From assembly GCA_963664405.1 (NCBI GenBank), contig OY761158.1, positions 5,088,001 through 5,152,000 on the forward strand: DNA of 64,000 nucleotides, in the 5' to 3' direction. Made by a program: the position numbers and the translations under genes. The number at the start of each line of letters is the position of its first letter. Positions within the stretch are counted from its first letter, which is position 1. Under the pieces are notes generated by a model, which was not told the DNA's origin, did no database searches, and saw only the letters and a list, made by a program, of their open reading frames with translations. This document shows positions 3,899 to 63,426 of this stretch, one piece after another. The stretch comes from Thermoanaerobaculia bacterium (lineage in GTDB: Bacteria > Acidobacteriota > Thermoanaerobaculia > Multivoradales > Multivoraceae).

Positions 3899-4012
3899 GT
3901 ACCCCCGTTCGCGGACTTTGTCATGCAGACTGATGCATCCGTTGGCGAGGTATTGCATGCACTCGGTTTTGGCGAAAAGGGGACTGTGCCCTTGCCCAGA
4001 CTCGAGGCAAGT

Positions 4013-20039: not shown

Positions 20040-21608
20040 TCAACTCCTGCGTTGCCTCGGCCGCTCTGCCTCGAGTTTTTCTGTATCCATCTCACTCAAG
20101 AGCGGTGCCAACTGCTCGATCAGAAGTTCTTCACGCACCTGCGCCAGTCCAGGATCGTTGGCTAGATTCCGCAATTCGCGCGGATCACGAGCGAGATCGT
20201 ACAACTCAACGACGTCTCGCGACGCGGCGTCGATAGCCATCTTGTACCGATCACCGCGGACCATCGAGTAGCCCGCCAATTCGCTGAAGACAGCCGCCCT
20301 ACCCTCCTGAGCGTCTAAGGCCCTCGGACCCGCGGTGACCCTGGGCACAAGCGAGCGGCCGGGGCTATCCGCGAGGGGCTCAGCTCCGGCGATATCGATC
20401 AGAGTGGCGGCAATGTCGAGGTGATCGATCTGTGCCTTCGTGTGCCAGCCTTGCACCCTCCTCGGCGGCCTGACAAGGCAGGGAACATTGAGCGCACCTT
20501 CATAGAATACCGACTTACCCTCCAGACGGTGATCGCCAAGCAGCTCCCCATGATCGGAGGTGTAGATGATCCAGGTGTCATCCATCAGCCCTTTCGCCTC
20601 GAGGGCCGCAATGACCTGGCCGATGCCATCATCGATAAGGGTGACCTTGCCATAGTAGTTGGCTCGCAAGACCTGAGCCCGCGCCTTGCCCATGCTCGTC
20701 AGCCCTCTGCCCAGTCTCGTCTGAGCCTCAACCAGTGGTGGCGTCGGTCCAACCGGCGCATCCATGATCGGCAGGGGCATGTCATCGGCGTCGTATTTGG
20801 CGCGGTACTCCGACGGTGAATCGAACGGCGGATGCGGGCCGACCGGGCACACCTGCAGATAGAAAGGCTTATCGCTCGAATAGTTTCTTATCCATTGAGC
20901 CGACTCACGCAAGATAAACATATCCAGATGATCTTCCGGCGGCATGAGGCTCGGAGGTGTTTCCCAACTACGCCCACGCCCCCCCAGCTGTTTGTCGCCG
21001 ACGCGTACGCCCCGGCCACCGGACTTGTAACCCGCATTGTGGTGGGCCAGGTTGAGCTCCAGTAAGCCTTTTTCTGCCAGATAGTCCGTGTAGGGCGACA
21101 TCGTCGTGTTGCCGCCGCCGGTCTCTATGGCTTCCATATAACCCCAGTCCTCGAGATCTGGAGTACCTAGACGGGTGTGGCCTCTCGCCCGGTGGAGGTG
21201 GGTCTTCCCGATGACGGCAGTGTGGTACCCCGCGTCGCGGACGTTGCGAATGTGGCTCGGGCCTTCGCGGTCAGCGAGAACTCCGTTGCGCCAGGCGCCG
21301 TGCACATTGACATACTGTCCGCTCGCCAGCGAGGACCGGGCAGGCATACATAACGGCGAGTTGCAGATGCACCGCTCGGCCACCATCGCCTCGCTCGCCA
21401 GTTTGTCCAGGTGCGGCGTGATGACCACGTCGTCGCCCATGAAACCGAGCGCATCCGCACGCTGTTGGTCGGGCATGATCAGAATGATATTGGGCTTGCT
21501 CGCTGCCCTTGGCGCCTCACTTGCCACGACGCTCTGTGGGAGCGCTGCTGCGGTACCGAGCCCCGCGGTCGCTTTCAGGAATTCCCGACGGTTTGGATTC
21601 CGGCCCAT
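20040..21608 (-). CDS. Tat-exported sulfatase (choline-sulfatase-like)
   Basis: NRREFLK twin-arginine signal; PDQQRAD, CMPARSS, GKTHL, PHPPF, TSDHGE. Confidence 0.9.
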   Translation of the reverse strand: MGRNPNRREFLKATAGLGTAAALPQSVVASEAPRAASKPNIILIMPDQQRADALGFMGDDVVITPHLDKLASEAMVAERCICNSPLCMPARSSLASGQYVNVHGAWRNGVLADREGPSHIRNVRDAGYHTAVIGKTHLHRARGHTRLGTPDLEDWGYMEAIETGGGNTTMSPYTDYLAEKGLLELNLAHHNAGYKSGGRGVRVGDKQLGGRGRSWETPPSLMPPEDHLDMFILRESAQWIRNYSSDKPFYLQVCPVGPHPPFDSPSEYRAKYDADDMPLPIMDAPVGPTPPLVEAQTRLGRGLTSMGKARAQVLRANYYGKVTLIDDGIGQVIAALEAKGLMDDTWIIYTSDHGELLGDHRLEGKSVFYEGALNVPCLVRPPRRVQGWHTKAQIDHLDIAATLIDIAGAEPLADSPGRSLVPRVTAGPRALDAQEGRAAVFSELAGYSMVRGDRYKMAIDAASRDVVELYDLARDPRELRNLANDPGLAQVREELLIEQLAPLLSEMDTEKLEAERPRQRRS

Positions 21609-39800: not shown

Positions 39801-40069
39801 CACCGACAGCGCTGTTCTTCAAGATGCACGATCCCTGGCACGATCTGGGTGAGGGCATTATCGACTCTCCGCCGATCAACGCCGGCCTGCAAATGGTGAT
39901 CGATCGTCCGATCGCCCTCGGCGAGACTTGCCGAGCCAGAGGTGAGCTCGTCGACAAGGGAATATCTGGGCGGTGCTGGTTTCGGACCGTGGAGTTCGTC
40001 GTTCGTGATGCCGAAGGTCGCCGCTGCGCCGCTCTACGCCAAAAGGCCAAGTGGTTCGCGCCTGAGTAG
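36836..40069 (+). CDS. Tandem family III (CaiB/BaiF) CoA-transferase fused to a double hot-dog (MaoC-like) domain
   Basis: Two CaiB units (LLADLGADVVLVE..NKRS; LALNGADVVQVE..NLNKRAITLDLK..VVENF..SISGYGQTGP); C-terminal SIHDDAKAREYGF and SPWGDPVAPP; start could be 36800. Confidence 0.85.
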   Translation: MSALDDLHVLDLTTSMAGAWCTRLLADLGADVVLVEPPAGHPLRRLRPLTADGSSIPARYVQANKRSLAADLETDDGRRRVASVAATSDVVVDSHSPGELARFGLDFETLERQRPGIVVASITPHGQSGERQRHAGNELTAFALSGWASINGRAEGPPLKGGGHLGSYLAGTAACGAVLAALWARDERGIGQTIDLAETELLLEMFAPGVLSALHSGLQSRGGRRDLHGGAMLKTKDGHFAFSLTRGARWAEALVALGLEELAADERFGSEEGRTSADFIAAVEARVAELDKMEMFEKLAPVRTAGGPVLNLAELASNEHLRARCFFVRPDDNEDGPEFPGAPFRMPHSPWRLRRSAPAPGEHSEEVLAELEGREMRLPNASSPAAEPVSDDAPPLAGLRVIAFTHAWVGPFCAELLALNGADVVQVESRQRPDEFRAGIFEGEVPPKLRDVTSAVNSWNCQPQYNAVNLNKRAITLDLKTPEGADLLQRLVAEADVVVENFSVRVKERLGIGYEALRCTNPDLVMVSISGYGQTGPWRERLAGGGQIEASCGMSSLMGDAEEPMNYSRTIADPTAGYYAFVAVLAALRHRRRTGEGQHVDLAMQEANHCCVGDAMLEYFETGRVRERMGNRHLSFAPHGVYPARGEERWVALAAENEAQWRELCRIAKRPRWLEDPRFLGNGGRKHNEDALDEAIAEWTVTRGRDRLAQELAGAGLPAAPVLDAVEVSADTVFRQRGVVADVAHPETGSWPQVGIPYHYSRTPIWVDRPAPLHGEHSAEVFAEWVGMEEAAYRELEAKGVTGMGPPEGWRRVVFEGRWRRIDYSRPIANVSIHDDAKAREYGFSRGFGFGDAAIDAVMPAILSRYGAPWLEGGWFDLKLVGPLYGDEEVREVAYSDDRENEALTLELVTRDGRLICVGHAGLGVNPPWDGLEVSPQSSEIFPQARLGHKTEETDFAIRREDYLALLDASGNDSAWFREASPWGDPVAPPTALFFKMHDPWHDLGEGIIDSPPINAGLQMVIDRPIALGETCRARGELVDKGISGRCWFRTVEFVVRDAEGRRCAALRQKAKWFAPE

Positions 40070-40079
40070 GTTCACGATC

Positions 40080-40409
40080 CTCGAAGAAACGAGCGAGGTC
40101 GAAGCCTTGGGAGGGAACAACCTGTGCCAGGTTGCTGCCTTCCACCAGCTCCATCGTCAGGTAGCGGAGTCCATCACTCTCCTCGATCGAGTGCAGGATG
40201 ACGATATTGGGATGGTTGAGAGAAGCGACCGCCTTCGCCTCGCGCTCGAAGCGCTCGCACCGATCCGCGTCGTCGGCCAACTCTCTTGGGAGAATCTTCA
40301 GGGCCACCTTGCGATGGAGCTTGTCGTCCATCGCCGCGTAGACCTCACCCATGCCTCCTTCGCCGAGCTTGGCGAGGATCTCGTAGTGGTCGATGCGGCT
40401 ACCGATCAC
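40080..40409 (-). pseudogene. Truncated Ser/Thr kinase (N-lobe only)
   Basis: HYEILAKLGEGGMGEVY, VALK, FEREA, LNHPNIV, MELVEG; similarity ends before HRD/DFG; left end approximate. Confidence 0.85.
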
Positions 40410-41368
40410 TACAGTGCAAGCTTCAGCCACGCGGGATCGTGCTCGCTGCCGTTGCCTCCGTGCAGAGTACGGCGATCGATCCATGCCTCCTGGACGGTAT
40501 TGGCAAGTGCCGGGCTAACCCATATCTGGTCGTAGAGACTGAAGCTCGCCGGCTCTCCTGTCTCCTTGCTGCGATGGGTCCAGGCGGTCGTCAGCGGTCC
40601 GGGCCCACCCTTCTCCTCCTTGGCTGGGTTGGTCTCCTGCGGATTGGCGAGGGCGTCGACCAGTCCGAGCCCAGGAGCCCGCACCATCGGCGCCAGAGCG
40701 GTTGATCTCGGTGGATCTTCCATGTCGCCGAGAATGATGTAGCGACTGCCCTGGCCCATCCGCGCTCCTACGATTCGAGCGACGGTCTCGGCCTGGCGCC
40801 GCCTTCTCTGGTCATTGAGAGCTTCGGCTTCGGGGTCGTTCTTATGGTGCTGATAGTGGCTCTCCAGGTGATTGTTGTAGAGAGTGAAAAGCACGACCGA
40901 GCGGTTGGGGCTCAAGACCTCCACCTCCTGAAGGTCACGCCCGAAGACCGGCTGCCCGGGGGCGTCGGGATGGACCGCGCTGCGGTGAGAGGTGACGGCG
41001 CCGAGCGGAAGCTTCGAGAGTACGCCGAGGTCGATCAGGCGCGGATCGTTGCCTTCGAGCACCGAAATGTGGGAGTAGAGCCCACCGAGCTGGTTGCGGT
41101 TGAAATCTTCGAGGGTGTCGAGATTCTCGACCTCCTGTACCGCGAGGACATCGACGTCCATGGCCAGGATCCGGTCACGGATGCGCTCGGTGTCCAACGT
41201 CTTTCTGGCCTTGACGAGCTTTCCGTTGTAGGTGCGCAAGCGAAAGTCCATCGGGTCGCTGAACTCGTAGCGCAGAGTTAGGCCACCCTTGAGCTCTTCA
41301 GGGGTGGCTTTGAAGTGGAACCTCGAGTAGAGATTGTTGAGGTTGAAGGTACCGACGCTGACGTGCAT
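40409..41368 (-). CDS. Endonuclease/exonuclease/phosphatase family protein
   Basis: GTFNLNNL, LAVQEVE, GNDPR, NNHLES, GDMED, DQIW, SEHDP; AAGGAGG RBS. Confidence 0.85.
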   Translation of the reverse strand: MHVSVGTFNLNNLYSRFHFKATPEELKGGLTLRYEFSDPMDFRLRTYNGKLVKARKTLDTERIRDRILAMDVDVLAVQEVENLDTLEDFNRNQLGGLYSHISVLEGNDPRLIDLGVLSKLPLGAVTSHRSAVHPDAPGQPVFGRDLQEVEVLSPNRSVVLFTLYNNHLESHYQHHKNDPEAEALNDQRRRRQAETVARIVGARMGQGSRYIILGDMEDPPRSTALAPMVRAPGLGLVDALANPQETNPAKEEKGGPGPLTTAWTHRSKETGEPASFSLYDQIWVSPALANTVQEAWIDRRTLHGGNGSEHDPAWLKLAL

Positions 41369-46169: not shown

Positions 46170-46742
46170 TCAGTCGCCCACCTCGTGGGCCATGATCACC
46201 AGGTCGTGGGTGTCGCCCGCGGTATCGATCACCCAGTCGGCCAGCATGGACTCGAGGTCGAATCCCAATTTGCGAAAGACACCCCTGGCGGCCTCCTGGT
46301 CGCGAGGCATCTGCGCAATGATCTTGCGCAAGCTCGAGTGGCGAGCCACGTCGAGGATCTCGTCGGCGAGAAGAGAGCCAAGCCCGGTCCCCCGATAGCC
46401 GGGACCGACATTGAGGCGGATCTCACCCAGATGCCGCGACCATTGGGTGGGCTGACGATTGAGACTGCCGTAGCCGGCGAGGGTTTGCCCGTCGTAGGCC
46501 AGCACCGTGAAGGTCTGACCGGCTTCGATGTTTCTGACCCACTCCGCAACGACGTCCTGGCGAGTGATGTCCAGGGGCAGGAAGAGTAGATCCTCCTCCT
46601 GCAGCCCGCGCGCGAATTCGACGATATCACCGCATTCCGCCTCGGTCAGCGTCCTCAGCTCCAGATCCTTCCCTCGGGCTTTGACCGTGCGCGGGTAGGA
46701 ACGGCCGGCTTGGAGCGAGGGTATGATCGGCCTTGTCGTCAC
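46170..46742 (-). CDS. GNAT acetyltransferase
   Basis: GEIRLNVGPGYRGTGLG, FRKLGF. Confidence 0.85.
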   Translation of the reverse strand: MTTRPIIPSLQAGRSYPRTVKARGKDLELRTLTEAECGDIVEFARGLQEEDLLFLPLDITRQDVVAEWVRNIEAGQTFTVLAYDGQTLAGYGSLNRQPTQWSRHLGEIRLNVGPGYRGTGLGSLLADEILDVARHSSLRKIIAQMPRDQEAARGVFRKLGFDLESMLADWVIDTAGDTHDLVIMAHEVGD

Positions 46743-46798
46743 CCGAGAAAACTATCAGAACAACCGGCGCCTCACCTCCGCTCTGTTACGCTGCCGTT

Positions 46799-48748
46799 AT
46801 GGAAGAGCGGGTCTTCGGTCACTACCGCGTCGTCGAGGAGTTGGGCCGGGGTGGCATGGGTGTTGTCTACAAGGCCTTCGAGGAGTCGCTGAACCGCTCC
46901 GTCGCGATCAAGGTCCTTGCAGATCATCTCACTGAGGACGAGGATTTCGTCAAGCGCTTCAAGCGGGAGGCTCAGAGTGCGGCGGGCCTGTCGCACCCCA
47001 ATGTCATCCAGATCTTCTTGATCGGCGATGAGCAGGGGGTTCCGTACTTCGTCATGGAGTTCGTCGAAGGGCCGTCAGTGAAGGATGTTCTGAAGAAAGA
47101 GGGGCCCATGGCCTCGGGAGTAGCGGCGAGGCTTGCTCGCCAAGCGGCTTCTGGGCTCGCGGCGGCCCACGACCGGGGTCTGATCCATCGTGACATCAAG
47201 CCCGGAAACCTGATGGTCGCGAGGGGCAATCAGATCAAGATCGCCGACTTCGGCCTGGCCCTCCAGCCCGAGGACGCGGCGACACGATTGACCGCCACCG
47301 GCATGCTGATGGGTACGCCTGGATATCTCTCGCCGGAGCAGTGCGGAGGAGCCTCGCCGGACTCCCGCAGCGACATCTACTCGCTGGGCATGACTCTGTA
47401 CGAGATGCTGGCCGGCTCCGGCCCTTTCGAGGGCAACAGCCCGCTCGCCATCATTCGCCAGATTCTCTACGAGGAGCCGACGCCTCTGGATGAGCTCGAC
47501 ATCGGCGTCAGCCCGCAGCTGAACGAGATCGTGGCGAAGATGCTTGCCAAAGCGCCGTCAGAGAGGTACCAGAGCTGCCGTGAGGTGATGGATGCTCTCA
47601 AGGTCTACATCGAGCGGATTGCACCGTTGGAGGAAGCGAGCGGCCTGACGGTGCCGGTGACAATGCCGGCACTTTCCGGCTCTGCAGAGTTGCCTCCCCT
47701 CCCGGAGCTCCCGTCGGCCGCGAGCGCTGTTCGGGCGCCCACGACGCCGCTGCCGGCAGGTGCGACCCAGCGAGTCGAAGACATTCCTCCGTCCGGAGCT
47801 TACGGCTCGCCGGGTCGTCGTCGGCTGCTCCTGGTCGCTATCCTCGTGCTGCTCCTGCTCGCGGGCGCTGCAGGTATCGCCCTGGTGGCGGGCCCACGTC
47901 TGCAGTCGGCCTGGGCTGACTTCCGAGGAGAGAGAGAGAGGCTCGAAGAGCCCCTGGTCGAGGAAGCAGTCGCGGCCCAACCAGAGCGCCCGGTTGCCGG
48001 CGAGGTGGAGGAGGCGCCGGGACCCGAGCCCGCAGTGCTCGCGGAGCACGCAGACACGGCACCGCCATCCGTCACGGAGAGCCCGCTGGCGTCCGAAGCG
48101 CAACTCGCTGGAACGGCTGGGGAGTCCTCGGTGCAGGAGGCTCCTGGGGCACCTTCATCCCACAGTGGAGTGGTGGATGCCGGGGATCCGATGCCGACTC
48201 GCCTCCGCGCCGAGGCGGCTGTGGCTCCGACCACCCGCGAGAGCCGAGATCGTCCTCCGCCTCTACCCGCTCTTCCGCGGCTGATGGTACTCGGCACCGG
48301 TGAAGCCGCGCTGGCCACCGCCGTCGAGCAGGCGCTGGAAGAGGATCTCGGCCGCCGCGGCTTCGAAGTCGTGGATGAGCGCTCCATGCCCGAGATTGAC
48401 GACCTACTGAAATCGGGCAATGGGAGCGTGACCCACCTTGCCCCCTATCTCGCCGTCAACGATGTGCACGTCCTGGTGGTGGCGGAAGCTGAGTTCCTCG
48501 GAGAGCGAGAGCTCCGCTATTTGGGGCGCCGCAGTTTAGGGCTCAGCTCCGAGCTTCGAATCCACAGCTTTCTCACCGCCGGTCAGCGTGCCCTCGGGCA
48601 GGGTTGGAGAGAGCGCCTGGAGTACACCGGACTGACCGCAGCGAAAACTGCGGATCAGGCGTTGGAGGCCGCTGGCCCCGAGCTCGCCGATGCGATCCGA
48701 GACGGTTGGGCCCTCTTCCGCGAGGAGCGCGGCGCGCCCAGGCTCTAG
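46799..48748 (+). CDS. Membrane Ser/Thr protein kinase
   Basis: GRGGMG, VAIK, HRDIKPGN, DFG, GTPGYLSPE, DIYSLG; TM segment and extracytoplasmic C-terminal domain. Confidence 0.92.
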   Translation: MEERVFGHYRVVEELGRGGMGVVYKAFEESLNRSVAIKVLADHLTEDEDFVKRFKREAQSAAGLSHPNVIQIFLIGDEQGVPYFVMEFVEGPSVKDVLKKEGPMASGVAARLARQAASGLAAAHDRGLIHRDIKPGNLMVARGNQIKIADFGLALQPEDAATRLTATGMLMGTPGYLSPEQCGGASPDSRSDIYSLGMTLYEMLAGSGPFEGNSPLAIIRQILYEEPTPLDELDIGVSPQLNEIVAKMLAKAPSERYQSCREVMDALKVYIERIAPLEEASGLTVPVTMPALSGSAELPPLPELPSAASAVRAPTTPLPAGATQRVEDIPPSGAYGSPGRRRLLLVAILVLLLLAGAAGIALVAGPRLQSAWADFRGERERLEEPLVEEAVAAQPERPVAGEVEEAPGPEPAVLAEHADTAPPSVTESPLASEAQLAGTAGESSVQEAPGAPSSHSGVVDAGDPMPTRLRAEAAVAPTTRESRDRPPPLPALPRLMVLGTGEAALATAVEQALEEDLGRRGFEVVDERSMPEIDDLLKSGNGSVTHLAPYLAVNDVHVLVVAEAEFLGERELRYLGRRSLGLSSELRIHSFLTAGQRALGQGWRERLEYTGLTAAKTADQALEAAGPELADAIRDGWALFREERGAPRL

Positions 48749-49833
48749 AGCGACCCGACCTCATGCCCCATGGCGCGAAGTCGATTCGCCATATCGGGCT
48801 TGTCGACGGCCTTGTAGTAGGCGTCTTTCGGATCGGCGGCACCTTCGCGCACGAGACGTTGGAGATCGTCGTTGAGTAAGCGCATGCCGTGGCGTTGACC
48901 GACCTGCATGGCCGATGGCAGCTGGTGGGTCTTGGCCTCACGGATCTGATTTGCCACCGCCGGCGTACCGATCAAGATCTCCAAGGCCGCTACCCGGCCG
49001 CCACCGCCGGGGCGTCGAAGGAGGGTTTGAGAGATTACTGCGGCCAACGATTGCGACAGCATCGAGCGGATCTGCTCCTGTCGCTCGGCGGGGAACTGGC
49101 CGATGATGCGGTCGATACTCGAGGACGCGGTCGTCGTATGGAGGGTGCCTATCACCAGATGTCCGGTCTCGGCGGTGGTGATGGCGGTCTCGGTGGTTTC
49201 CAGATCCCGCATCTCGCCGATCATGACAATGTCGGGGTCCTGGCGCAGAGCCGCGCGTAGGGCACGCCTGAAGCTGGTTGCGTGGACTCCCACCTCACGT
49301 TGGTCGATCAAGCAGCGCTCGCTTTTGTGGACGAACTCGATCGGATCCTCGATGGTGATGATGTGATCGGAGCGGCTGCGGTTGATTCTGTCGATCATCG
49401 CAGCAACGGTTGTGGTCTTGCCGCAGCCGGTGGGCCCGGTGATCAAGACGAGACCCTTGTTGAGCTCGCAGAGCTCGGCGAGCACCGGTGGCATGCCGAG
49501 ATCCTCGAGAGTCAGGATCTTGCTTGCAATATGACGAAAGACGCCGCCCATGCCCAAGCGGTCGCGAAAGACGTTGACGCGGAAGCGTCCCAAGTCGGCT
49601 TGTTCGTAGCCGAAGTCGGTGTCCGCCTTCTCTTCCAGCTCCTTGGCGTTGCGCTCGGGCAGGATCTCTCGGAGCAGTCGCTCGGTCTCTTCCGCCGACA
49701 GCTTGGCGCCCGCCTCTCCGACGCCCACCATGCTACCCGAGACTCGGTAGACAGGTTGCTCCCCTGGGCTCAGATGAAGATCGGAGGCCTCGGTGGCGAC
49801 TTGGACCTTCAGGTATCGATCTATGTCCGGCAT
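48745..49833 (-). CDS. pilT: Type IV pilus retraction ATPase PilT family
   Basis: ASDLHL, RFRVNVF, GPTGCGKTT, TIEDPIE, QREVG, ALRQDPD, GEMRD, AETGHL, TLHT, AVANQIRE. Confidence 0.92.
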   Translation of the reverse strand: MPDIDRYLKVQVATEASDLHLSPGEQPVYRVSGSMVGVGEAGAKLSAEETERLLREILPERNAKELEEKADTDFGYEQADLGRFRVNVFRDRLGMGGVFRHIASKILTLEDLGMPPVLAELCELNKGLVLITGPTGCGKTTTVAAMIDRINRSRSDHIITIEDPIEFVHKSERCLIDQREVGVHATSFRRALRAALRQDPDIVMIGEMRDLETTETAITTAETGHLVIGTLHTTTASSSIDRIIGQFPAERQEQIRSMLSQSLAAVISQTLLRRPGGGGRVAALEILIGTPAVANQIREAKTHQLPSAMQVGQRHGMRLLNDDLQRLVREGAADPKDAYYKAVDKPDMANRLRAMGHEVGSL

Positions 49834-49840
49834 GTTCCCG

Positions 49841-50530
49841 TCACTTGATCCTGGGTGTCTCGGGGTGGGGCGTGATGCATAAGATTGCGTGATAGGGCAC
49901 GAGGTGCAAGCGGCCGTCGGCATCGCGAAGCCGTAACAGATGGCCGGCGGGACCGGGCTCGAAGCCCACCAGGTTGCCCTCGAGATCGCTGCCGTCAGCG
50001 AGACGCAGAGTCGCCTCGTTGTGACTGTCGACCAGCTCGCGGAGGCCTAGCTGGTCGAGACCCGACGTTTGCAGGTTCCACTCGATGCTGGCGCGAAGAA
50101 GGTCGAGAAGGAGTCGAGCATCCTTCGACATGAGACCGAGAAAGTGCTCGAGGAGGTGGTCCCTGGTCGCCGGCGAACGCTCTCGTAGCTCGCGAAAGGA
50201 CCCGGCATCGAAACGCAGGAGCCGGGTCGGCTCGATTGCCGTCGAGGTTGCGGCGGCTTGCTCCGAATCGATCGCGGAGGCCCAACCGAAGATGTCGCCG
50301 GCGCGCTTGGTCGCTAGAGTGCGATTGAGCTCGCCACCGGCGATAGGCATTACGATCTCGACCGCTCCCGACAGTACGACATAGACCGAACCGGCTGCCG
50401 CGTCCCCCGCGGTCTGGATTACTTCGCCTGTCGCTCGTTCCTCGGTCTGACTCAGAGAAAGGATGAGCTCGAGCTCATCGGATGCCATGCCTGAGAACAA
50501 GGGGTTGGTGCGGAGGTCGTCTGCCGTCAT
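49841..50530 (-). CDS. Cyclic-nucleotide-binding-fold protein with C-terminal Hfq/Sm-like domain
   Basis: PLFSGM, VYVVLSGAVEI, GDIFG, AIEPTRLL; C-terminal ATLRLADGSDLEGNLVGFE..LHLVPYHAILCITP. Confidence 0.75.
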   Translation of the reverse strand: MTADDLRTNPLFSGMASDELELILSLSQTEERATGEVIQTAGDAAAGSVYVVLSGAVEIVMPIAGGELNRTLATKRAGDIFGWASAIDSEQAAATSTAIEPTRLLRFDAGSFRELRERSPATRDHLLEHFLGLMSKDARLLLDLLRASIEWNLQTSGLDQLGLRELVDSHNEATLRLADGSDLEGNLVGFEPGPAGHLLRLRDADGRLHLVPYHAILCITPHPETPRIK

Positions 50531-50591
50531 CGGTGCGCCATCTTAACTCGTGCCGGTTCTAGGAGTGCTCAATGCGAGGCTTCCCGGCCGC

Positions 50592-50714
50592 GCCCGTGAG
50601 GCGTATTTGAACGGCATTACTTTGCAAGCGCGCTCCGGTTTCAACCCGTTTCAGTTCGGTCTGTCGGGCGCCTCCGACTACCATTCGGGTGTCTCGGCGA
50701 TCGAGGAAGACAAC
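50592..50714 (+). pseudogene. Internal fragment of a DUF3604-like metallohydrolase
   Basis: AREAYLNGITLQARSGFNPFQFGLSGASDYHSG..EEDN resembles the NP[FY]xFGxxxxxDxH motif; no start or rest of gene. Confidence 0.6.
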
Positions 50715-50807
50715 GCGTCGGTGTTCAGCGGCCCCTTTTCCGATAGCTCGGCGGAGCAGCGCATGTCGCGGGCGACGAGTGGTTGGGTAGCGCGGCCGAA
50801 ATAGCCT

Positions 50808-52154
50808 TCAGGCCCCCGGTGGTGAGTCCCCGCTGGTGCGGGTTGCGATTCTCTGTCGCCCATCGGGATAGAGGATCACGATCTGGGAACCTGCTCCCGC
50901 CTCCGACCTGAGCTCCAAGCGGCGGTCCTCCATCTCTTCGAAACAGAAGAGACCACCGCCGAGGTGCAATAAGCGCCGGGCCGGGCGGGAAGCAAGCCGA
51001 TACCAGAGGGCGCCGTCGCGGAGGCTGACCGTTTCGTCGCCGTAGGTTCCGACGTACTGGCGAAGAGTCGCTTCGTCGAGGGGAGTCTCCTCTCGGCTGA
51101 GAGTCTCGTGGACCCATTCCAGGGAGGTCGGGGCCTCACTGCCGTTGTTGGTGAGTAGAGTCGCGACGGCGTCCCGATGCGCGAAACGGAGTGCGTCTTT
51201 CTGTGGCAGATCAACGTCGGGAGCGACGCCTGTCCCTTCCCAGTTGGTGCCGGTGATCGGATTGATTGCGCGTCCGAATGGCATCGAGATCTCGATCCCC
51301 AACTTGGGGAAACGGCGCATCGTCACCGGGTGGGCGCCGCCGCCGGTCGTCTCTCCCACGATCTTCGCCCGCTTCAGATTCTTGAGGTTGTAGGTGAACT
51401 CTTCGGCGGCGGAAAAGGTAAAAGCGCTGGTGAGAACGTAGACAGGGATCTCCGTCATCCGTGGCCCGTCGACTTCCTCGTGGGTCCAGAACTCCTGGCG
51501 GCGATCGGTGGCGCGGATGTAGAAGGTATTGAGGTGCACCTTGCCTTCGAAGAGGTAGCTCGACAGCAGCTGGATCATCGAGGGTGAGCCGCCACCGTTG
51601 CGTCGCAGATCGAAGATCAGAGCGTCGCAACTGGCGAGAAAGTTCATTGCTCCGACGGCGGTAGCTCGGGCGCCTCCCATCTCTGCAGCGGCGAAAGAAC
51701 GCAGATCGACATAGCCGACATTCCCTGGCAGTCGCCGTACGCTCTCGAATCCGTAGTTCGTTCGCCTTGCCGCTTCGGCCGGCGACACCCGGGTCGTGCT
51801 GGAAGCCTCGGCCGACGGCTCCGCTGCCGGCGGTAGCTCGCGAACGCGGAGATGCTTGTCGTGGCTGATCGATTGCAGATCCGCAGTCAGGGTTTCCGCC
51901 AGTGGGCCGAGCTCCGCGATCTCTGCGTAGCGTCCGGCCTCGAGGTTGGCGGAGAGCAGCTCTCCCATCTCCGCGGCCTTGTCGGGGAAGACGTAGGTGG
52001 TGTCGAGCGCGGCGACGATGCTTTTCACGATCTCGGCGCGAGAGCCGTCCTCGACCGGCTGCGCCTGCGCAGCACCGGCCGAGATGAGGATCAGGGCGAG
52101 GGAGCAGAGACTGTGCGTCGGGGAAGGCCGGCGGTCGTGGTTCAAGCTCGACAT
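50808..52154 (-). CDS. S41-family peptidase (IRBP-like)
   Basis: YVFP, DKHL, GNVGY, DLRRNGGG, TFSAAEEF, GETTGGGA, WEGTGVAPD. Confidence 0.92.
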   Translation of the reverse strand: MSSLNHDRRPSPTHSLCSLALILISAGAAQAQPVEDGSRAEIVKSIVAALDTTYVFPDKAAEMGELLSANLEAGRYAEIAELGPLAETLTADLQSISHDKHLRVRELPPAAEPSAEASSTTRVSPAEAARRTNYGFESVRRLPGNVGYVDLRSFAAAEMGGARATAVGAMNFLASCDALIFDLRRNGGGSPSMIQLLSSYLFEGKVHLNTFYIRATDRRQEFWTHEEVDGPRMTEIPVYVLTSAFTFSAAEEFTYNLKNLKRAKIVGETTGGGAHPVTMRRFPKLGIEISMPFGRAINPITGTNWEGTGVAPDVDLPQKDALRFAHRDAVATLLTNNGSEAPTSLEWVHETLSREETPLDEATLRQYVGTYGDETVSLRDGALWYRLASRPARRLLHLGGGLFCFEEMEDRRLELRSEAGAGSQIVILYPDGRQRIATRTSGDSPPGA

Positions 52155-57679: not shown

Positions 57680-57814
57680 CGAAGGTTGCCCAGGCAGCCT
57701 GCGGCAGCCAAAGGGTGTCAGGCGTCAACCCGTCAGAGCCCTGCTGGACGCAGAGTTTTTCTGTAATAAGCGAACGACCAGGCAAGCATTAGAGGCGCGA
57801 ATACGAAGCGTTGC

Positions 57815-60116
57815 CTATTGCTTGGCCATGGCAATCTTGAGCTCCAATGCGGGGTCGTAATAACCCTTGCCGTCGGTCGTTACTGTCACACGGTCGATTT
57901 TTTCCGCTGAATTTGAAAGGTGATGAATAATCATCCACAACCGGGGACTGGCTGTTGTATCCGCAGCAGAAGCCGCTGTCCGCCAAGTGGTAGCGAACAC
58001 CGATCGTGCGCGGAATTCTCCCCTCGCCGACCTTCTTCCCATTGATCAACAACAGCCCTTGTCCACCGGGACCGATGCCTTCGACACTATCTTTCTCAAA
58101 CCTGAATTCTAGTTTCACTGCTCCTGACGGGATGACATCACTGGACACCATTCGGTGGCGTTCCATGTTCAAGAAGTTGTAGGCGTAGCGGAGCCGTTGG
58201 TCTTTCACATAGAACGTGTAGCCGCCGTATCTTCCTCCGTGGCACAGTAATACCCCTTCAGCACCGTCCGGTGGGATCTCCACCTCGGCCACGATAGTGT
58301 GAGACCGATTCTTTACATTAACCGCGACTCCTTCACCAATGGGCGCTCCATCGGGAAAGTAGATGTACTCCTGTTTATCCTCATAAGGCTTCGGACGTGG
58401 CTCGAACATACGTTCCATCGCCCTATCGTCCAAAGGCAGCACGTTGTACCGCCCTGCCTCAGCCCACCACAGGTCCTGCAATTCTCGAAGCCTGTCCGGG
58501 TACTCGCCCGCCAGGTCTCTATATTCTGAGAAATCCTCAGCGACGTGGTAGAGCTCCCAGACGTCATCATCAAATGACCTACCTTCCAGTCCGCGAATCG
58601 GAGCGGCTTTACGATGCCAGGTGACGGCCTTCCATCCACGGTGATAGATGGCCCGACATCCCATCATTTCGTAGTATTGAGTCAGGTGACGCCCGTCGGC
58701 TTCGGCCTCATCCAGTGAATAGCCGAAGCTTGTTCCTTCCAACGGTTTCTGGGCATGGCCGTCGAGATCGTCGGGTGCCTGCAATCCCAGCAACTCGAGC
58801 ACTGTTGGTACCAGATCAATGGCGTGGACGTACTGTCTTCTCATCTCTCCCTTTGCCTTGATGGCATTCGGCCATTGGACAATCATGGGGTCCGCTACGC
58901 CGCCCTCATGGGTCTCGGTCTTCCAGCGTTTCAGCGGCGCGTTTCCTGCCCACGTCCATCCCCAGGGATAGTTGCAGTAGGAATCGGGGCCGCCGAGCTT
59001 GTCGAGCTCGGCAAGGTTCTCATCGAGGGTAAACGGAACGGCATTGAAGAGCCGCGCCTCGCTGGTGGACCCGTCGGGCCCTCCTTCAGAGCTGGCTCCA
59101 TTGTCAGATACCAGCATGATGAGGGTGTTGTCGTATTGATCGATCTGCTTTAGATATTCAAGCAGTCTACCGATATGGAAATCCGTGTGCTCCAGAAAGC
59201 CGGCGTAAACTTCCATGAAGCGAGCGTAGACCCTTTTCTGAGTGCCAGACAAAGTCTCCCAGTCTTGAACCCATTTAGGCCGGGGCGGCAGCTGGGTGTT
59301 TTCCGGGATAACCCCATCCCTTAACTGACGTTGATAGATCTCTTCCCGCCATTTCTCCCAGCCGTGATCGAATTTCCCGCGATATTTTTCAATCCACTCG
59401 GCGGGGGCCTGGTGAGGAGCGTGCATGGCACCCGGTGCGAAGTACATGAAGAAGGGTTTGTCCGGCTCCACGTTCTTGAGGTCTGTAATAAACTCCTGGG
59501 CCTTCTCAACCATATCTTCCGTGAGGTGGTAGCCCTCCTCGGCGGTTCTTGGCGGCGTAACAGGATGATTGTCGTAGATCAGATTGGGGTCGAACTGATC
59601 TGAATGGCCGCCCAGAAAACCGTAAAAACGTTCGAATCCGCGTCCCAGGGGCCAGCGCTCCTTGGTGGCGGCCATATTGGTTTCCTCGTCCGGTGTCAGG
59701 TGCCACTTCCCGAGGGCAAAGCAGGAATAGCCTTCTTTTGACAGCGTCTCGCTGAGAAATCCGTTTTCTTTTGGGATGGTGCAGTTGTAGCCAGGGTAGC
59801 CCGTGGCGAACTCAGTGATGCAAGCCATGCCGTTGGAATGGTGATTGCGCCCCGTCAGTAAACAGGACCGGGTTGGCGAACACATGGCGGTGGTATGGAA
59901 GTTGGTATACATCAGACCTTCTTCGGCCATGCCATCCATATTTGGAGTGGCGATATCAGACCCATAGCAGCCCAATTGGGCAAACCCAACATCGTCAAGC
60001 ACGATGAAGAGGATGTTGGGTGAACCGGCGGGAGACTTTGGAGGCGGGTCCCAATGGGGTTTTGACTCTTCTCGGAGTCTACCGATTATTGCTTTGACTT
60101 CGGCTTGCTCTTCCAT
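57815..60116 (-). CDS. Cytoplasmic arylsulfatase (AtsA/AtsD-like) with a homopolymer frameshift near the 3' end
   Basis: LDDVGF, CSPTRSCLLTGRNHH, GKWHL, HAPH, SDNGAS; natural tail KIDRVTV..AMAKQ* is in another frame after a 6-A run at 57898-57903. Confidence 0.88.
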
Positions 60117-60385: not shown

Positions 60386-61801
60386 ATGAGAACCCTGATC
60401 GGCTCCCTCTTCCTGTCGGCCGCCGCCGCATTCGCTGCGCCGCCCAACGTCCTCTTTGTCAGCGTCGACGACATGAACGACTGGGTAGGCGCGCTGGGCT
60501 ACGAGGCTGCGCACACGCCCAACATCGACCGCCTGGCGGCGCGCGGCACCCTGTTCACCAATGCGCACGCTCCCTCGCCCAAGTGCAATCCTTCTCGCAC
60601 CGCCATCCTCTCCGGTCTGCGGCCTTCGACCACCGGTGTCTACGGCAACGGCGAGTGGTGGAGGCCCAATCTTCCCGACGTCGTGATGCTGCCGCGTTAC
60701 TTCAAGGACAACGGCTATATCGCGGCCGGCGGGGGCAAAGTCTTTCATCACACGTCGGGCTTCAATCCCCCGGAGTCCTGGGACGAGTACTTCGACCTCG
60801 TAGACGACCTGAAGAGCGAAGGATTCCTCGTTCCCTATCGCCGCCCAGACCACATTTCGAGCTTCGACTGGGGACCGTTCGACAAGACCGACATGGAGAT
60901 GGGCGACGGCGCTACCGTGCGCTGGGCCGAAGAGTTCTTGCGACGGACGCACCCGCATCCCTTCTTTCTTGCCGTCGGGCTTTTCCAGCCGCATCTACCC
61001 TTCTATGCGCCGCGTGCGCACTACGACGCGGTCGGTCCCACGGGAGCGCCCATCCCCGAGGCGAAAGACGGTGATCTCGACGACGTGCCGCGAGCGGGTC
61101 GCAAGATGGCGGCCTCTCGCCGTAATGACCTCGAGCTGATCGAAGAGCACGGCGATCTCGGCGACGTCGTGCGCTCCTACGCGGCGGGCATTCGGCATGC
61201 CGACGCGCTTGTCGGCCGCGTTCTCGATGCTCTGGATGGGAGCAGGTACGCTGAGAACACCATCGTCGTCTTCTGGTCCGACCACGGCTACCACTTCGGC
61301 GAGAAGCGCCACTTCGCCAAGGACACACTGTGGGAGCGTGACTCCCACGTTCCGCTGGTAATCGTCGCCCCCGGTGTCACCGAGGCTGGCACCAAGAGCG
61401 CCCGTCCGGTGAGCTTGCTCGATCTCTACCCGACCTTGGTGGATCTCTGCGACCTACCGAACCGACCCGAGCTCGAGGGCGTCAGCCTGCGGCCACTACT
61501 CGAGAGCCCCTACCGCGAGTGGCGAAGACCCGCGCTCATGACCTTCGGGCGCGGCAACCACGCCGTGCGCTCGCAGCGTTACCGCTACATTCGCTATGCC
61601 GACGGTGGCGAAGAGCTCTACGATCACCAGCATGATCCGCACGAGTGGACCAACCTTGCCGGTACCCCTGCCTACGAAAGAGTGATTGCCGATCATGCCC
61701 GCTGGCTGCCGCAACGGAACGCACCGGGTGCGCTGCTGAAGTCTGCTTTCCATTTCGATGCGCAGAGCTACACCTGGCGCCGCAAGGCGGGAGAAGGGTG
61801 A
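60386..61801 (+). CDS. Secreted sulfatase (iduronate-2-sulfatase-like)
   Basis: VDDMND, CNPSRT, GKVFH, PHLP, WSDHGYHFGEK. Confidence 0.9.
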   Translation: MRTLIGSLFLSAAAAFAAPPNVLFVSVDDMNDWVGALGYEAAHTPNIDRLAARGTLFTNAHAPSPKCNPSRTAILSGLRPSTTGVYGNGEWWRPNLPDVVMLPRYFKDNGYIAAGGGKVFHHTSGFNPPESWDEYFDLVDDLKSEGFLVPYRRPDHISSFDWGPFDKTDMEMGDGATVRWAEEFLRRTHPHPFFLAVGLFQPHLPFYAPRAHYDAVGPTGAPIPEAKDGDLDDVPRAGRKMAASRRNDLELIEEHGDLGDVVRSYAAGIRHADALVGRVLDALDGSRYAENTIVVFWSDHGYHFGEKRHFAKDTLWERDSHVPLVIVAPGVTEAGTKSARPVSLLDLYPTLVDLCDLPNRPELEGVSLRPLLESPYREWRRPALMTFGRGNHAVRSQRYRYIRYADGGEELYDHQHDPHEWTNLAGTPAYERVIADHARWLPQRNAPGALLKSAFHFDAQSYTWRRKAGEG

Positions 61802-63426
61802 GGACCCTAGACCAGCGTTTCCAAAGTTCGTGCTGCATAGCTCGAGGTCATTCTGTTCGCTGGCTAGGCGCGCTGACGCAGGCATATTGGGCAATATGTC
61901 GAGGAGGCGAAACGACGCCAGCGGGCAGAAGGGCCCGAGATATGTGCGCGAACTTTGGAAACGCTGGTTTAGGGACGCTAGTCGTCGCCCTCGCGCTCGC
62001 AACTGCGGCGTTTGCCGACCGGCCCAACTTCGTCTTCATTCTCGCCGACGACCTGGGTTGGCGTGATCTGGGTGTCTACGGCAGCCAGTATCACGAGACG
62101 CCCCATCTCGACCGGCTGGCGGCGGAGGGTGCCCGCTTCACCGATGCCTATGCGGCGGGCAATTCGTGCTCGCCCACGCGGGCAAGCATACTCACCGGCA
62201 GGTATCCGGCGAGAACGCACCTGACCGATTGGATCCCCGGGCGCACCCCTCCGGGGGCAAAACTCTCGATCCCGCGTTGGACCAACTATCTGCGGCACGA
62301 AGAGACGACCATCGCGGAAGTGCTCGCCGATGCCGGCTACGTGACCGCCGAGATAGGGAAGTGGCATCTGGGCAAGGAGGGCTGGTGGGCGGAGGACCAT
62401 GGCTTCGACGTGAGCATCGGCGGCAGTCATGTTGGAGCGCACGGCAGCATGTTCCCGCCCTACTGGCCAGCCGACAAGGCTCATCGGCTTGGGTGGCGGC
62501 AGTTCCCCGAGGAGGACCGCGGCGAGTACTTGACCGATCGCCTCACCCGCGAGGCGGTTGGCTTCCTCGACCGCCACGGCCACGAGCCCTTCTTTCTCTA
62601 CCTCTCTCACTACGCCGTGCATACTCCGATTCAGAGCCGCCCGGAAGTCGCTGCAAAGTATCGCGCGAAGAAGGCGGTGGGACCCCAGAAGAACCCCGAG
62701 TACGCGGCAATGGTCGAAGGGCTCGACACCAGCGTGGGCACGGTGCTGACAAAGCTCGAAGAGCTGGGGATTGCGGACCGAACGGTGGTCGTCTTCTTCT
62801 CCGACAATGGCGGGCTGTCGAGAGGCAACACCCTCACCTCGAACGAGCCGCTGCGCGGAGAGAAGAGCACGCCCTGGGAGGGCGGTGTCAGAGTGCCTCT
62901 GATCGTCAAGTGGCCTGGGGTCACACGACCCGCAGCTGTGATCGAAGAACCGGTGACGAGCGTCGACTTGTTCCCGACAATGCTAGGTATGGCGCGTCTC
63001 GAGGTCGGCGACAACATCGACGGCCAAAGTCTCGTCTCTCTCCTGAGAGGCGACGCGGACTTCGAGCGCGGGCCGATCTACTGGCATTATCCGCACTACA
63101 ACGCCCACACGCCGGTCGTCACCTGTACGCCTTACGGTGCGGTGCGCGAGGGCCGCTTCAAGCTCGTTGAGCTCTACGAGGACGATCGTGTCGAGCTTTA
63201 CGATCTGCGTGCGGACATCGGAGAGACACGCAACCTCGCCACGGCGATGCCCGAGAAGGTGAGTGAGCTGCGTCGCAAGCTTCACAACTGGCGCGAATCG
63301 GTGGGTGCGCAGATGCCCACGTCCAACCCGAGTGCCGACCCGGCGAAGTACCGCGAGTACAAAGAGAAGCGATTGTGGAGGCCGGTGGGGCCCTACGATC
63401 AGCAGACCTCGTTCGACGTGCCGTAG
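61798..63426 (+). CDS. Secreted sulfatase (arylsulfatase A/GALNS-like) with an in-frame palindromic insertion in its signal peptide
   Basis: GTGA-coupled start at 61798 (alternative ATG 61942); ADDLGW, CSPTRAS, GKWHLG, HTPIQ, SDNGG, EGGVRVP. Confidence 0.88.
   Translation: MRTLDQRFQSSCCIARGHSVRWLGALTQAYWAICRGGETTPAGRRARDMCANFGNAGLGTLVVALALATAAFADRPNFVFILADDLGWRDLGVYGSQYHETPHLDRLAAEGARFTDAYAAGNSCSPTRASILTGRYPARTHLTDWIPGRTPPGAKLSIPRWTNYLRHEETTIAEVLADAGYVTAEIGKWHLGKEGWWAEDHGFDVSIGGSHVGAHGSMFPPYWPADKAHRLGWRQFPEEDRGEYLTDRLTREAVGFLDRHGHEPFFLYLSHYAVHTPIQSRPEVAAKYRAKKAVGPQKNPEYAAMVEGLDTSVGTVLTKLEELGIADRTVVVFFSDNGGLSRGNTLTSNEPLRGEKSTPWEGGVRVPLIVKWPGVTRPAAVIEEPVTSVDLFPTMLGMARLEVGDNIDGQSLVSLLRGDADFERGPIYWHYPHYNAHTPVVTCTPYGAVREGRFKLVELYEDDRVELYDLRADIGETRNLATAMPEKVSELRRKLHNWRESVGAQMPTSNPSADPAKYREYKEKRLWRPVGPYDQQTSFDVP
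61807..61972. mobile_element. 166-nt palindromic MITE-like element, same family as 32361-32527
   Basis: CTAGACCAGCGTTTCCAAAGTTCG / CGAACTTTGGAAACGCTGGTTTAG inverted ends; shared core AGGCGC..GCAGGCATA..TGTCGAnGAGG..AACGnCGCC. Confidence 0.78.

Follow-up and report, generated by a model that had tools for sequence, protein, structure and literature searches.

A window of 64,000 nt from the genome of a Thermoanaerobaculia bacterium (Acidobacteriota; assembly GCA_963664405.1, contig OY761158.1, positions 5,088,001 to 5,152,000) encodes a protein in which a cyclic nucleoside monophosphate (cNMP) binding fold is joined, through a long helix, to a C-terminal domain homologous to Hfq and predicted to fold as an Sm barrel. 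The gene is followed by one encoding a PilT-type pilus ATPase, a pairing that is conserved across genomes, and the PilTs linked in this way form a distinct group. By analogy with a known pilus-associated Hfq, we propose that the fusion protein, as an Sm-like subunit that carries a sensor, directly binds and regulates its dedicated PilT, a reading to which we give a probability of about 55%. The data suggest an undescribed kind of PilT-motor regulator, which we rate as a new family of Sm-like proteins, novel in both architecture and motor partner. An initial annotation, made from the DNA letters and a list of open reading frames (ORFs), knew of no description of such a fusion, and we likewise found neither the fusion nor its pairing with pilT described in print in the full-text literature, where most subscription journals were not covered.

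The Sm/Hfq-like domain and the sensor fold

A word-based homologue search with the whole protein returned two proteins among 2313 candidates. An exhaustive search of 1.84 billion representatives gave 4509 matches at E ≤1e-3, mostly ordinary cNMP domains; among the 150 matches listed, many were single-stretch proteins of 219-250 residues that aligned end-to-end with the query at 25-41% identity. The window protein and 69 full-length relatives make up alignment A1 (70 rows), which leaves out fragments (P0007, P0041, P0043, P0093 and P0117 among them) and all longer multi-domain proteins. The last 80 residues are conserved in A1, with the consensus W.L.VSGA..LNL..L......V...L..G....G.LL.VE.S..G.EL.L....G....IPYHAI..I. 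Since the public names of the relatives are only 'CRP-like cAMP-binding protein', 'cyclic nucleotide-binding domain-containing protein' or 'hypothetical protein', both the Sm-like domain and the link to PilT are invisible in databases.

Within the limited reach of word-based searches, the Sm-like domain was always fused to PF00027 (10 of 10 longer matches) and no stand-alone form was seen among 355 short candidates scored. When the genomes of relatives were inspected (n=60), only G040 carried a full-length homologue, and pilT follows it there too. The A1 profile was also run over 401 genomes of the phylum, where ordinary cNMP domains dominated the output; of the 150 matches listed (there were 1418 more), only two, in G000 and G040, were full-length. 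Three unpublished genomes (G083, G108 and G209) are part of this sample and enter only this count.

The full-length AlphaFold2 (AF2) model (mean predicted local distance difference test score, pLDDT, 90.7; predicted template-modelling score, pTM, 0.73) shows a beta-roll, a helix of residues 120-160, a short helix and five strands. The long helix ends in a conserved hinge, W151-x-L-x-V-S-G157, of which W151 and G157, together with L163 further on, are invariant or nearly so both in A1 and in a 10-row alignment, A3; the pLDDT falls to 69-79 over residues 151-170. Beyond the hinge, a helix (163-168) is followed by strands at residues 172-177, 182-193, 196-202, 208-212 and 216-221. Modelled alone with AF2, the C-terminal domain reached a pLDDT of 82.4, and of >90 in the barrel.

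On profile and model evidence, residues ~162-221 are an Sm/Hfq-like domain, with a similarity well beyond what chance would give. Searched against 177,635 chain sequences of the PDB, the profile A2, built from 36 C-terminal domains, placed Hfq first, with the proteins of Listeria (4noy_D, E 4.9e-4), Anabaena (3hfn_A, 7.8e-4), Synechocystis (3hfo_A, 6.5e-3) and B. subtilis (3ahu_A, 0.014); Sm D1 came after Hfq, and the designed ankyrin repeats interspersed among these matched only the helical LN..L part. A search of the 6.78-Mb genome in six-frame translation with A2 recovered the fusion gene at 92.3 bits, with the canonical Hfq ORF of this genome second (E 0.0016, 20.4 bits) and the next match at an E of 0.51. 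Aligned by hhalign with 21 Hfq sequences from genomes of the same phylum (the unpublished G083 left out), A2 gave a probability of 96.2% (E 2e-9, score 47.7) over 59 columns, beginning at the end of the N-terminal helix and including strand 5. As controls, one reversed and 20 column-shuffled profiles of Hfq gave at most 2.1% and a score of 15, and the cNMP part of A1 against the Hfq profile gave 0.1%. This alignment sets lIPYHAI on the lIFKHAI of Hfq; the PYHA motif, the most conserved of the family, is invariant in A3, and P212 is conserved at a level of at least 90% in A1.

Pfam scans of the 70 members singly, with matches taken by E-value rather than by cut-off, gave Hfq_1 in 12, Hfq in nine, PRC_RimM in eight, LSM in six and ROF in two (best E 4e-5 to 9e-3). 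Foldseek, run with the C-terminal model, returned 13 matches at E ≤1e-3, of which the listed ranks 1-11 were all Hfq chains (top E 3.7e-4; template-modelling score by target 0.72-0.83). VIA-align over 48,161 chains placed Synechocystis Hfq (3hfo_A) first, with a Z of 10.1 and a root-mean-square deviation of 2.7 over 65/65 residues, followed by five more Hfq chains (Z 9.6-9.4) and then by YaeO (6jie_A, Z 9.2). Readings of the C-terminus as PilZ, WYL or PRC-barrel ranked below Hfq in every test (Pfam, PDB profile and VIA-align). The initial annotation had aligned the last ~60 residues (about 49868-50047) by eye with the Sm1 and Sm2 motifs of Hfq; it was right, because four lines of sequence evidence and the structure predictions agree, with the PDB profile, own-genome, hhalign and fold searches all leading to Hfq.

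Whole-genome scans with PF17209 and PF21979 found only two other loci and not the fusion gene. One is the canonical Hfq of the genome (C1:6690749-6690922). The second is a divergent Hfq-like ORF outside the window (G000:C1:3783738-3783890), which scored 27.2 bits with PF17209 and 28.6 with PF21979.

The N-terminal part had been read as a cNMP domain, which is borne out by a PF00027 match above its cut-off and by a beta-roll with CRP-type structural matches: for the N-terminal 140 residues of the full model, CRP/CAP-type cNMP domains took the top Foldseek ranks (4ev0_A, E 3.8e-12). Its phosphate-binding cassette was correctly described as degenerate. The Gly column of the cassette is G in 70/70 rows of A1, the window protein included. 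Of the residues in contact with the cyclic phosphate, the Glu is kept in 42/70 rows and the Arg in 58/70, and the column after the Arg holds S or T in 39/70; the window protein, with FGW...QAAA, has W83, A92 and A93 at these three positions. It thus lacks the canonical Glu (FGE) and Arg (R[ST]A) of a receptor for cyclic AMP (cAMP) or cyclic GMP (cGMP). FGE...RSA is kept in four of 28 pilT-linked loci (L071, L072, L073 and L128), and the acidobacterial-type pilT-linked lineages have FGL...RPA or VG[AI]...R[DG]I.

Because A1 mostly keeps the cassette Glu and Arg, the family probably began as a true cyclic-nucleotide receptor. The window copy, having lost both residues, is probably blind to cyclic nucleotides, and conventional binding of cAMP or cGMP by it is unlikely. 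The initial annotation had called the protein a candidate ligand-gated Sm ring and its canonical cAMP binding doubtful. The doubt holds for the window copy and the nearer lineages, where the cassette is degenerate. It does not hold for the family, as most relatives keep FGE...R[ST]A, and 'ligand-gated' therefore suits the family better than the window protein.

The pairing with pilT

The pattern [RQN][LVI]H[LFV][IV]PYHA[IVL], taken from the 10 rows of A3 and blind to pilT, was scanned over public genome and metagenome contigs, and gave 10 confirmed loci from the former and 24 from the latter. At 33 of these loci the stop codon of the fusion gene has a pilT ATG after it on the same strand, and the one remaining contig breaks off 13 nt past the gene. 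Conservation of the pairing across genomes, which the initial annotation had set beforehand as a test of its proposal, was accordingly seen at 33/33 informative loci. The linked PilT homologues are 51-63% identical to the window PilT and align from residue 1.

The spacer measures 1, 2, 8, 11 or 12 nt in 32 of the 33 loci; in the remaining locus it is 53 nt long. At 20 of these 33 junctions the TAG stop doubles as the first triplet of TAGGAG, a Shine-Dalgarno site lying 11-12 nt before the pilT ATG. The window junction differs in having a TGA stop and, as first annotated, a 7-nt spacer. An all-against-all comparison of ORFs from nine of the 10 genome-contig loci and the window (L066 left out) revealed no third gene common to all. 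Together, the two genes make up a cassette that is conserved and coupled in translation.

Some of the loci are not independent of others: with six partial matches left out, the window protein and the 28 near-full-length homologues fall into 19 clusters at 90% identity, nine at 70%, five at 50% and four at 40%. The genome contigs are labelled as Acidobacteriota/Thermoanaerobaculia (five), Planctomycetota (two), a proteobacterium, a 'Rickettsiales' metagenome-assembled genome (MAG) and a 'Polyangiaceae' MAG. In G444, the genome of L070, which is titled Polyangiaceae, all five PilT paralogues pair closely with those of G040, a genome of the order to which the window belongs, and the taxonomic label or the binning of G444 may be wrong.

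By its sequence, the product of the downstream gene is a PilT/PilU-family ATPase, for which a role in retraction is predicted. It scored 450.3 bits with TIGR01420 (cut-off 319.1) and 133 bits with the PilB model (cut-off 676), and its ATPase motifs are intact, the Walker A, Walker B, Asp and His boxes all being present, with GPTGCGKTT (Walker A), DPDIVMIGEMRD and ETGHLVIGTLHT among them. Walker A, Walker B and the His box are also kept in the cassette PilTs. In the genome, six loci exceed the PilT/PilU cut-off and three others resemble PilB/GspE. A paralogous pilT at C1:4014922 adjoins pilC-like genes, with pilM 22 kb off, and the cassette lies 1.1 Mb from this core cluster.

A maximum-likelihood tree was built of 32 PilT-family proteins, comprising the paralogues of G000, G040, G444 and G445 and the cassette PilTs, with five duplicates dropped and several long branches flagged. 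A branch with an ultrafast bootstrap (UFboot) of 86 and an SH-like approximate likelihood ratio test (SH-aLRT) value of 79, recovered in 87% of the bootstrap trees, has all 10 cassette PilTs on the same side. Their sister is a pair of non-cassette PilTs, the 12 together having 100/99 support, and no Sm-like gene was found within 1.5 kb of this pair. The linked PilTs are dedicated accessory paralogues; a group of their own is expected if they co-evolve with their partner.

The cassette PilTs of the Planctomycetota and proteobacterial types carry a long Pro/Ala-rich C-terminal tail ending in a conserved KKKxWF[GS], which the window PilT is without; this tail could be a docking peptide. A cassette-specific C-tail in the clade of the window (DMANxLRxxG), sought by analogy with PilB, was not clearly distinct from the sister paralogues. 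Another PilT/PilU paralogue clade (L006, at G000:C1:4564094-4565116; L088; L089) has a C-terminal extension of ~120 residues rich in Glu, Lys, Leu and Gln, which looks like a coiled coil.

The locus and its neighbours

The features of the locus are collected in Table 1. The next gene upstream of the fusion gene is that of an S41 peptidase, on the same strand and across a gap of 277 nt. On the other side, a Ser/Thr protein kinase gene (46733-48748, + strand, 671 aa) converges on pilT, the 3' ends overlapping by 4 nt; in the ORF comparison it was not kept beside the cassette at other loci. Both flanking genes are unrelated to the cassette. No sigma-70-like promoter was recognised in 48400-51000, and terminator-like sites there occurred at chance level. 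Nor was there any Rfam match in 48000-51500, and no RNA element or conserved structure was detected at the locus. The earlier statement that the window holds no other pil genes is upheld for the 33 other ORFs of at least 200 aa that were scanned, short pilin genes lying outside the scan.

Elsewhere in the window there are three large pyrroloquinoline quinone (PQQ)-dependent dehydrogenase genes and five sulfatase genes, a set that suggests a region for breaking down sulfated polymers or alcohols. A 202-aa ORF (39879-40484, - strand) matches kinase models at their first 91-95 positions only, and may be a truncated kinase gene or have a miscalled start.

Table 1. Features of the cNMP/Sm fusion gene, of its pilT partner and of their surroundings; positions are those of the window unless a locus is named
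Feature	Position	Strand	Basis
cNMP-fold / Sm(Hfq)-like fusion gene, 229 aa	49841..50530	-	ORF list and sequence; stop TGA 49841-49843
cNMP-binding fold, residues 33-118	50177..50434	-	PF00027, E 6.7e-14, 52.1 bits (cut-off 27.5)
Degenerate phosphate-binding cassette, residues 81-95, FGWASAIDSEQAAAT	50246..50290	-	A1 column counts
Long helix, residues 120-160, at the position of the CRP C-helix	50051..50173	-	DSSP on AF2 model
Predicted Sm/Hfq-like domain, about residues 163-221	about 49868..50044	-	Profile homology, AF2 topology, Foldseek, VIA-align
P212-Y213-H214-A215, most conserved motif of the family	49886..49897	-	Aligns with Hfq Sm2 [FY]-K-H-A
Spacer from fusion-gene stop to pilT ATG (operon junction), 7 nt, cgggaac	49834..49840	-	Sequence
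Accessory PilT-family ATPase gene, 362 aa, dedicated partner; ATG at 49833	48745..49833	-	TIGR01420, ATPase motifs, PilT tree
Upstream intergenic region, expected promoter site, none recognised	50531..50807	-	Sequence
PilTs of other cassettes with KKKxWF[GS] tail	L071:4669-5934, L072:4285-5412, L073:4686-5891, L074:203-1498		
Junctions with TAGGAG overlap	L065-L070, L119-L125, L134-L141		
PQQ-dependent dehydrogenase genes (three) and sulfatase genes (five)	1856-3958, 8399-10420, 10420-12519; 4016-6238, 20043-21608, 57792-60116, 60386-61798, 61645-63423		

A proposed regulatory partner for PilT

The first gene of the cassette follows the plan of CRP, with a cNMP-type sensor, a long helix and an Hfq-like Sm barrel replacing the DNA-binding helix-turn-helix, and the second provides a dedicated accessory ATPase of the PilT clade, made in step with the fusion protein. 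The latter is most likely a regulatory or adaptor subunit of its PilT. Its Sm-like domain, probably oligomeric, would contact the PilT hexamer, and the sensor domain would then govern the activity, assembly or recruitment of the motor. Where a lineage has kept the phosphate-binding cassette intact, the signal would be cAMP or cGMP; the window copy may be a constitutive partner or be tuned to another ligand. What we infer is the contact with PilT, the state of oligomerisation, the nature of the ligand and the consequences for the pilus.

Direct binding of PilT is favoured, the closest precedent being the Hfq found at the cyanobacterial pilus base. According to published accounts, PilB holds this Hfq in place by its C-terminal extension, piliation depends on the Hfq, and binding of RNA by it is improbable (PMC12288463, PMC8092324). 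A more specific version of our proposal, in which a second-messenger sensor on an Hfq-like Sm ring, docked on a dedicated PilT hexamer, switches retraction on and off, is held only tentatively, at somewhat less than even odds.

Several points weigh against direct regulation of PilT. Adjacency and translational coupling show a shared function, not binding. Support for a single clade of cassette PilTs is moderate (86/79). Every locus was found through one motif, so that about 40 motif-less members of the family, the Lentisphaerota cluster of P0046 among them, stand outside the count of pilT linkage, and the number of phyla is soft because MAG labels may be wrong. The window protein itself has no Hfq or LSM Pfam match at E ≤1, its sole C-terminal match being PRC_RimM at E 0.15. 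Finally, RNA binding keeps some probability because H214 is kept and an aromatic residue or His is often found at the position of the Hfq Phe.

Hfq is an established RNA chaperone, and the fusion protein might accordingly be a ligand-regulated RNA-binding protein, in which an Hfq-type ring binds RNA (its own mRNA or pilus transcripts, perhaps) under control of the sensor and the link to pilT is post-transcriptional. The homology to Hfq over the helix and all five strands is consistent with this, as are the invariance of the Sm2 His within PYHA and a predominance of H, Y, F or W at the site of the stacking Phe of Hfq. In E. coli Hfq, the proximal-face RNA pocket is formed by the Gln, the stacking Phe and the Lys-His of KHAI, and there is a basic rim. 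In the fusion protein the Lys beside the His is replaced by Tyr and the Tyr/Phe before it by Pro, the rim is not basic, its patch having no counterpart in the consensus LNLxxLi, and the N-terminal Gln region is unaligned. Moreover, a canonical Hfq and another Hfq-like ORF are already present in the genome, the locus yielded neither an Rfam element nor a conserved structure, and an RNA regulator would have no need of a private PilT paralogue in 33/33 loci. We therefore consider an RNA-binding role unlikely.

A shared pathway without contact is a further explanation. The fusion protein would bind another part of the pilus base (PilB, PilC or PilM) or another machine, with PilT recruited or opposed indirectly. 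The partner known for an Sm protein at the pilus base is the extension ATPase PilB and not PilT; the genome offers three PilB/GspE-like and five other PilT/PilU loci, and the cassette is away from the core pil genes. Nevertheless, only these two genes are common to all loci, tight translational coupling is typical of subunits made in fixed proportion, and the linked PilTs form their own group, as if co-evolving with the partner, which makes an indirect connection improbable in our view.

We give very little credence to a generic small beta-barrel (PRC barrel, SH3-like or WYL) serving as a mere dimerisation or stabilising appendage with pilT beside it by chance: PRC_RimM is indeed the only C-terminal Pfam match and matches eight of 70 relatives, many small barrels reach a Z of 6.5-8 in VIA-align and the E-values against PDB sequences are modest (~5e-4), but Hfq comes first by four routes (PDB sequences, own genome, hhalign with controls and two structure aligners), the alignments take in the N-terminal helix as well as the barrel, and a pairing with pilT in 33/33 loci is not accidental.

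If an Sm ring does dock on PilT, the partnership of Hfq and PilB would be an old and widespread principle that reaches the retraction motor too, and Hfq-like rings would have a protein-regulating life outside RNA biology. This would widen the role of Sm/Hfq-like domains beyond RNA, and would tie the puzzling cyanobacterial association of Hfq with PilB to a broader pattern. The control of PilT paralogues is poorly understood; many bacteria carry several of them, and this genome six. A conserved private partner with a sensor domain offers a directly testable handle on one class of these paralogues.

Among known systems, the CRP/FNR regulators (Thermus CAP, 4ev0; M. tuberculosis CRP) share with the fusion protein the N-terminal beta-roll, the long C-helix and a C-terminal effector. 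They differ in that the output of the fusion is an Sm-like barrel and not a helix-turn-helix, and in that the cassette Glu and Arg are absent from the window copy. No helix-turn-helix family was among the Pfam matches of the fusion protein, and the models give the C-terminus an Sm-barrel fold, so that binding to DNA in the manner of CRP is not expected.

YaeO/Rof, the Rho inhibitor, offers a second precedent for our proposal, being a small Sm-like barrel that binds a hexameric RecA-type ATPase rather than RNA. It resembles the C-terminal domain in structure (6jie_A in VIA-align) and through the ROF model, matched by two of 70 relatives. YaeO/Rof is without a sensor, its target is Rho and not PilT, and its sequence support is weaker than that for Hfq.

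With canonical Hfq (PF17209) the domain shares the helix and five strands, an Sm1-like L..G....G.l..[FV][DE] and an Sm2-like hhPYHAI set on hh[FY]KHAI. It is nevertheless not Hfq proper, because it misses the Pfam models, has a 4-residue insert between strands 2 and 3, replaces the Lys of KHAI by Tyr and lacks the basic rim. It also differs in being fused to a sensor, in a genome that has a separate true Hfq.

The closest likeness is to the cyanobacterial Hfq proteins (Synechocystis Ssr3341, Anabaena Asl2047 and that of S. elongatus, in the PilB-EbsA-Hfq association). In both cases an Sm/Hfq fold is tied to a pilus motor of the PilT/VirB11 superfamily and the RNA-binding residues are largely changed; 3hfo_A is the best structural match of the domain, and 3hfn_A and 3hfo_A are among its top profile matches. 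The cyanobacterial protein stands alone, at ~70 aa, whereas the present domain is part of a fusion with a cNMP sensor fold. The partner of cyanobacterial Hfq is the extension motor PilB, bound through the C-terminal extension of the latter, whereas the gene linked here is of the PilT clade; nor does the gene of cyanobacterial Hfq form a two-gene cassette with that of its ATPase. The family described here comes from Acidobacteriota, Planctomycetota and proteobacterial MAGs and not from cyanobacteria, and it extends a principle of Sm proteins associated with pilus ATPases that was so far known only from the latter.

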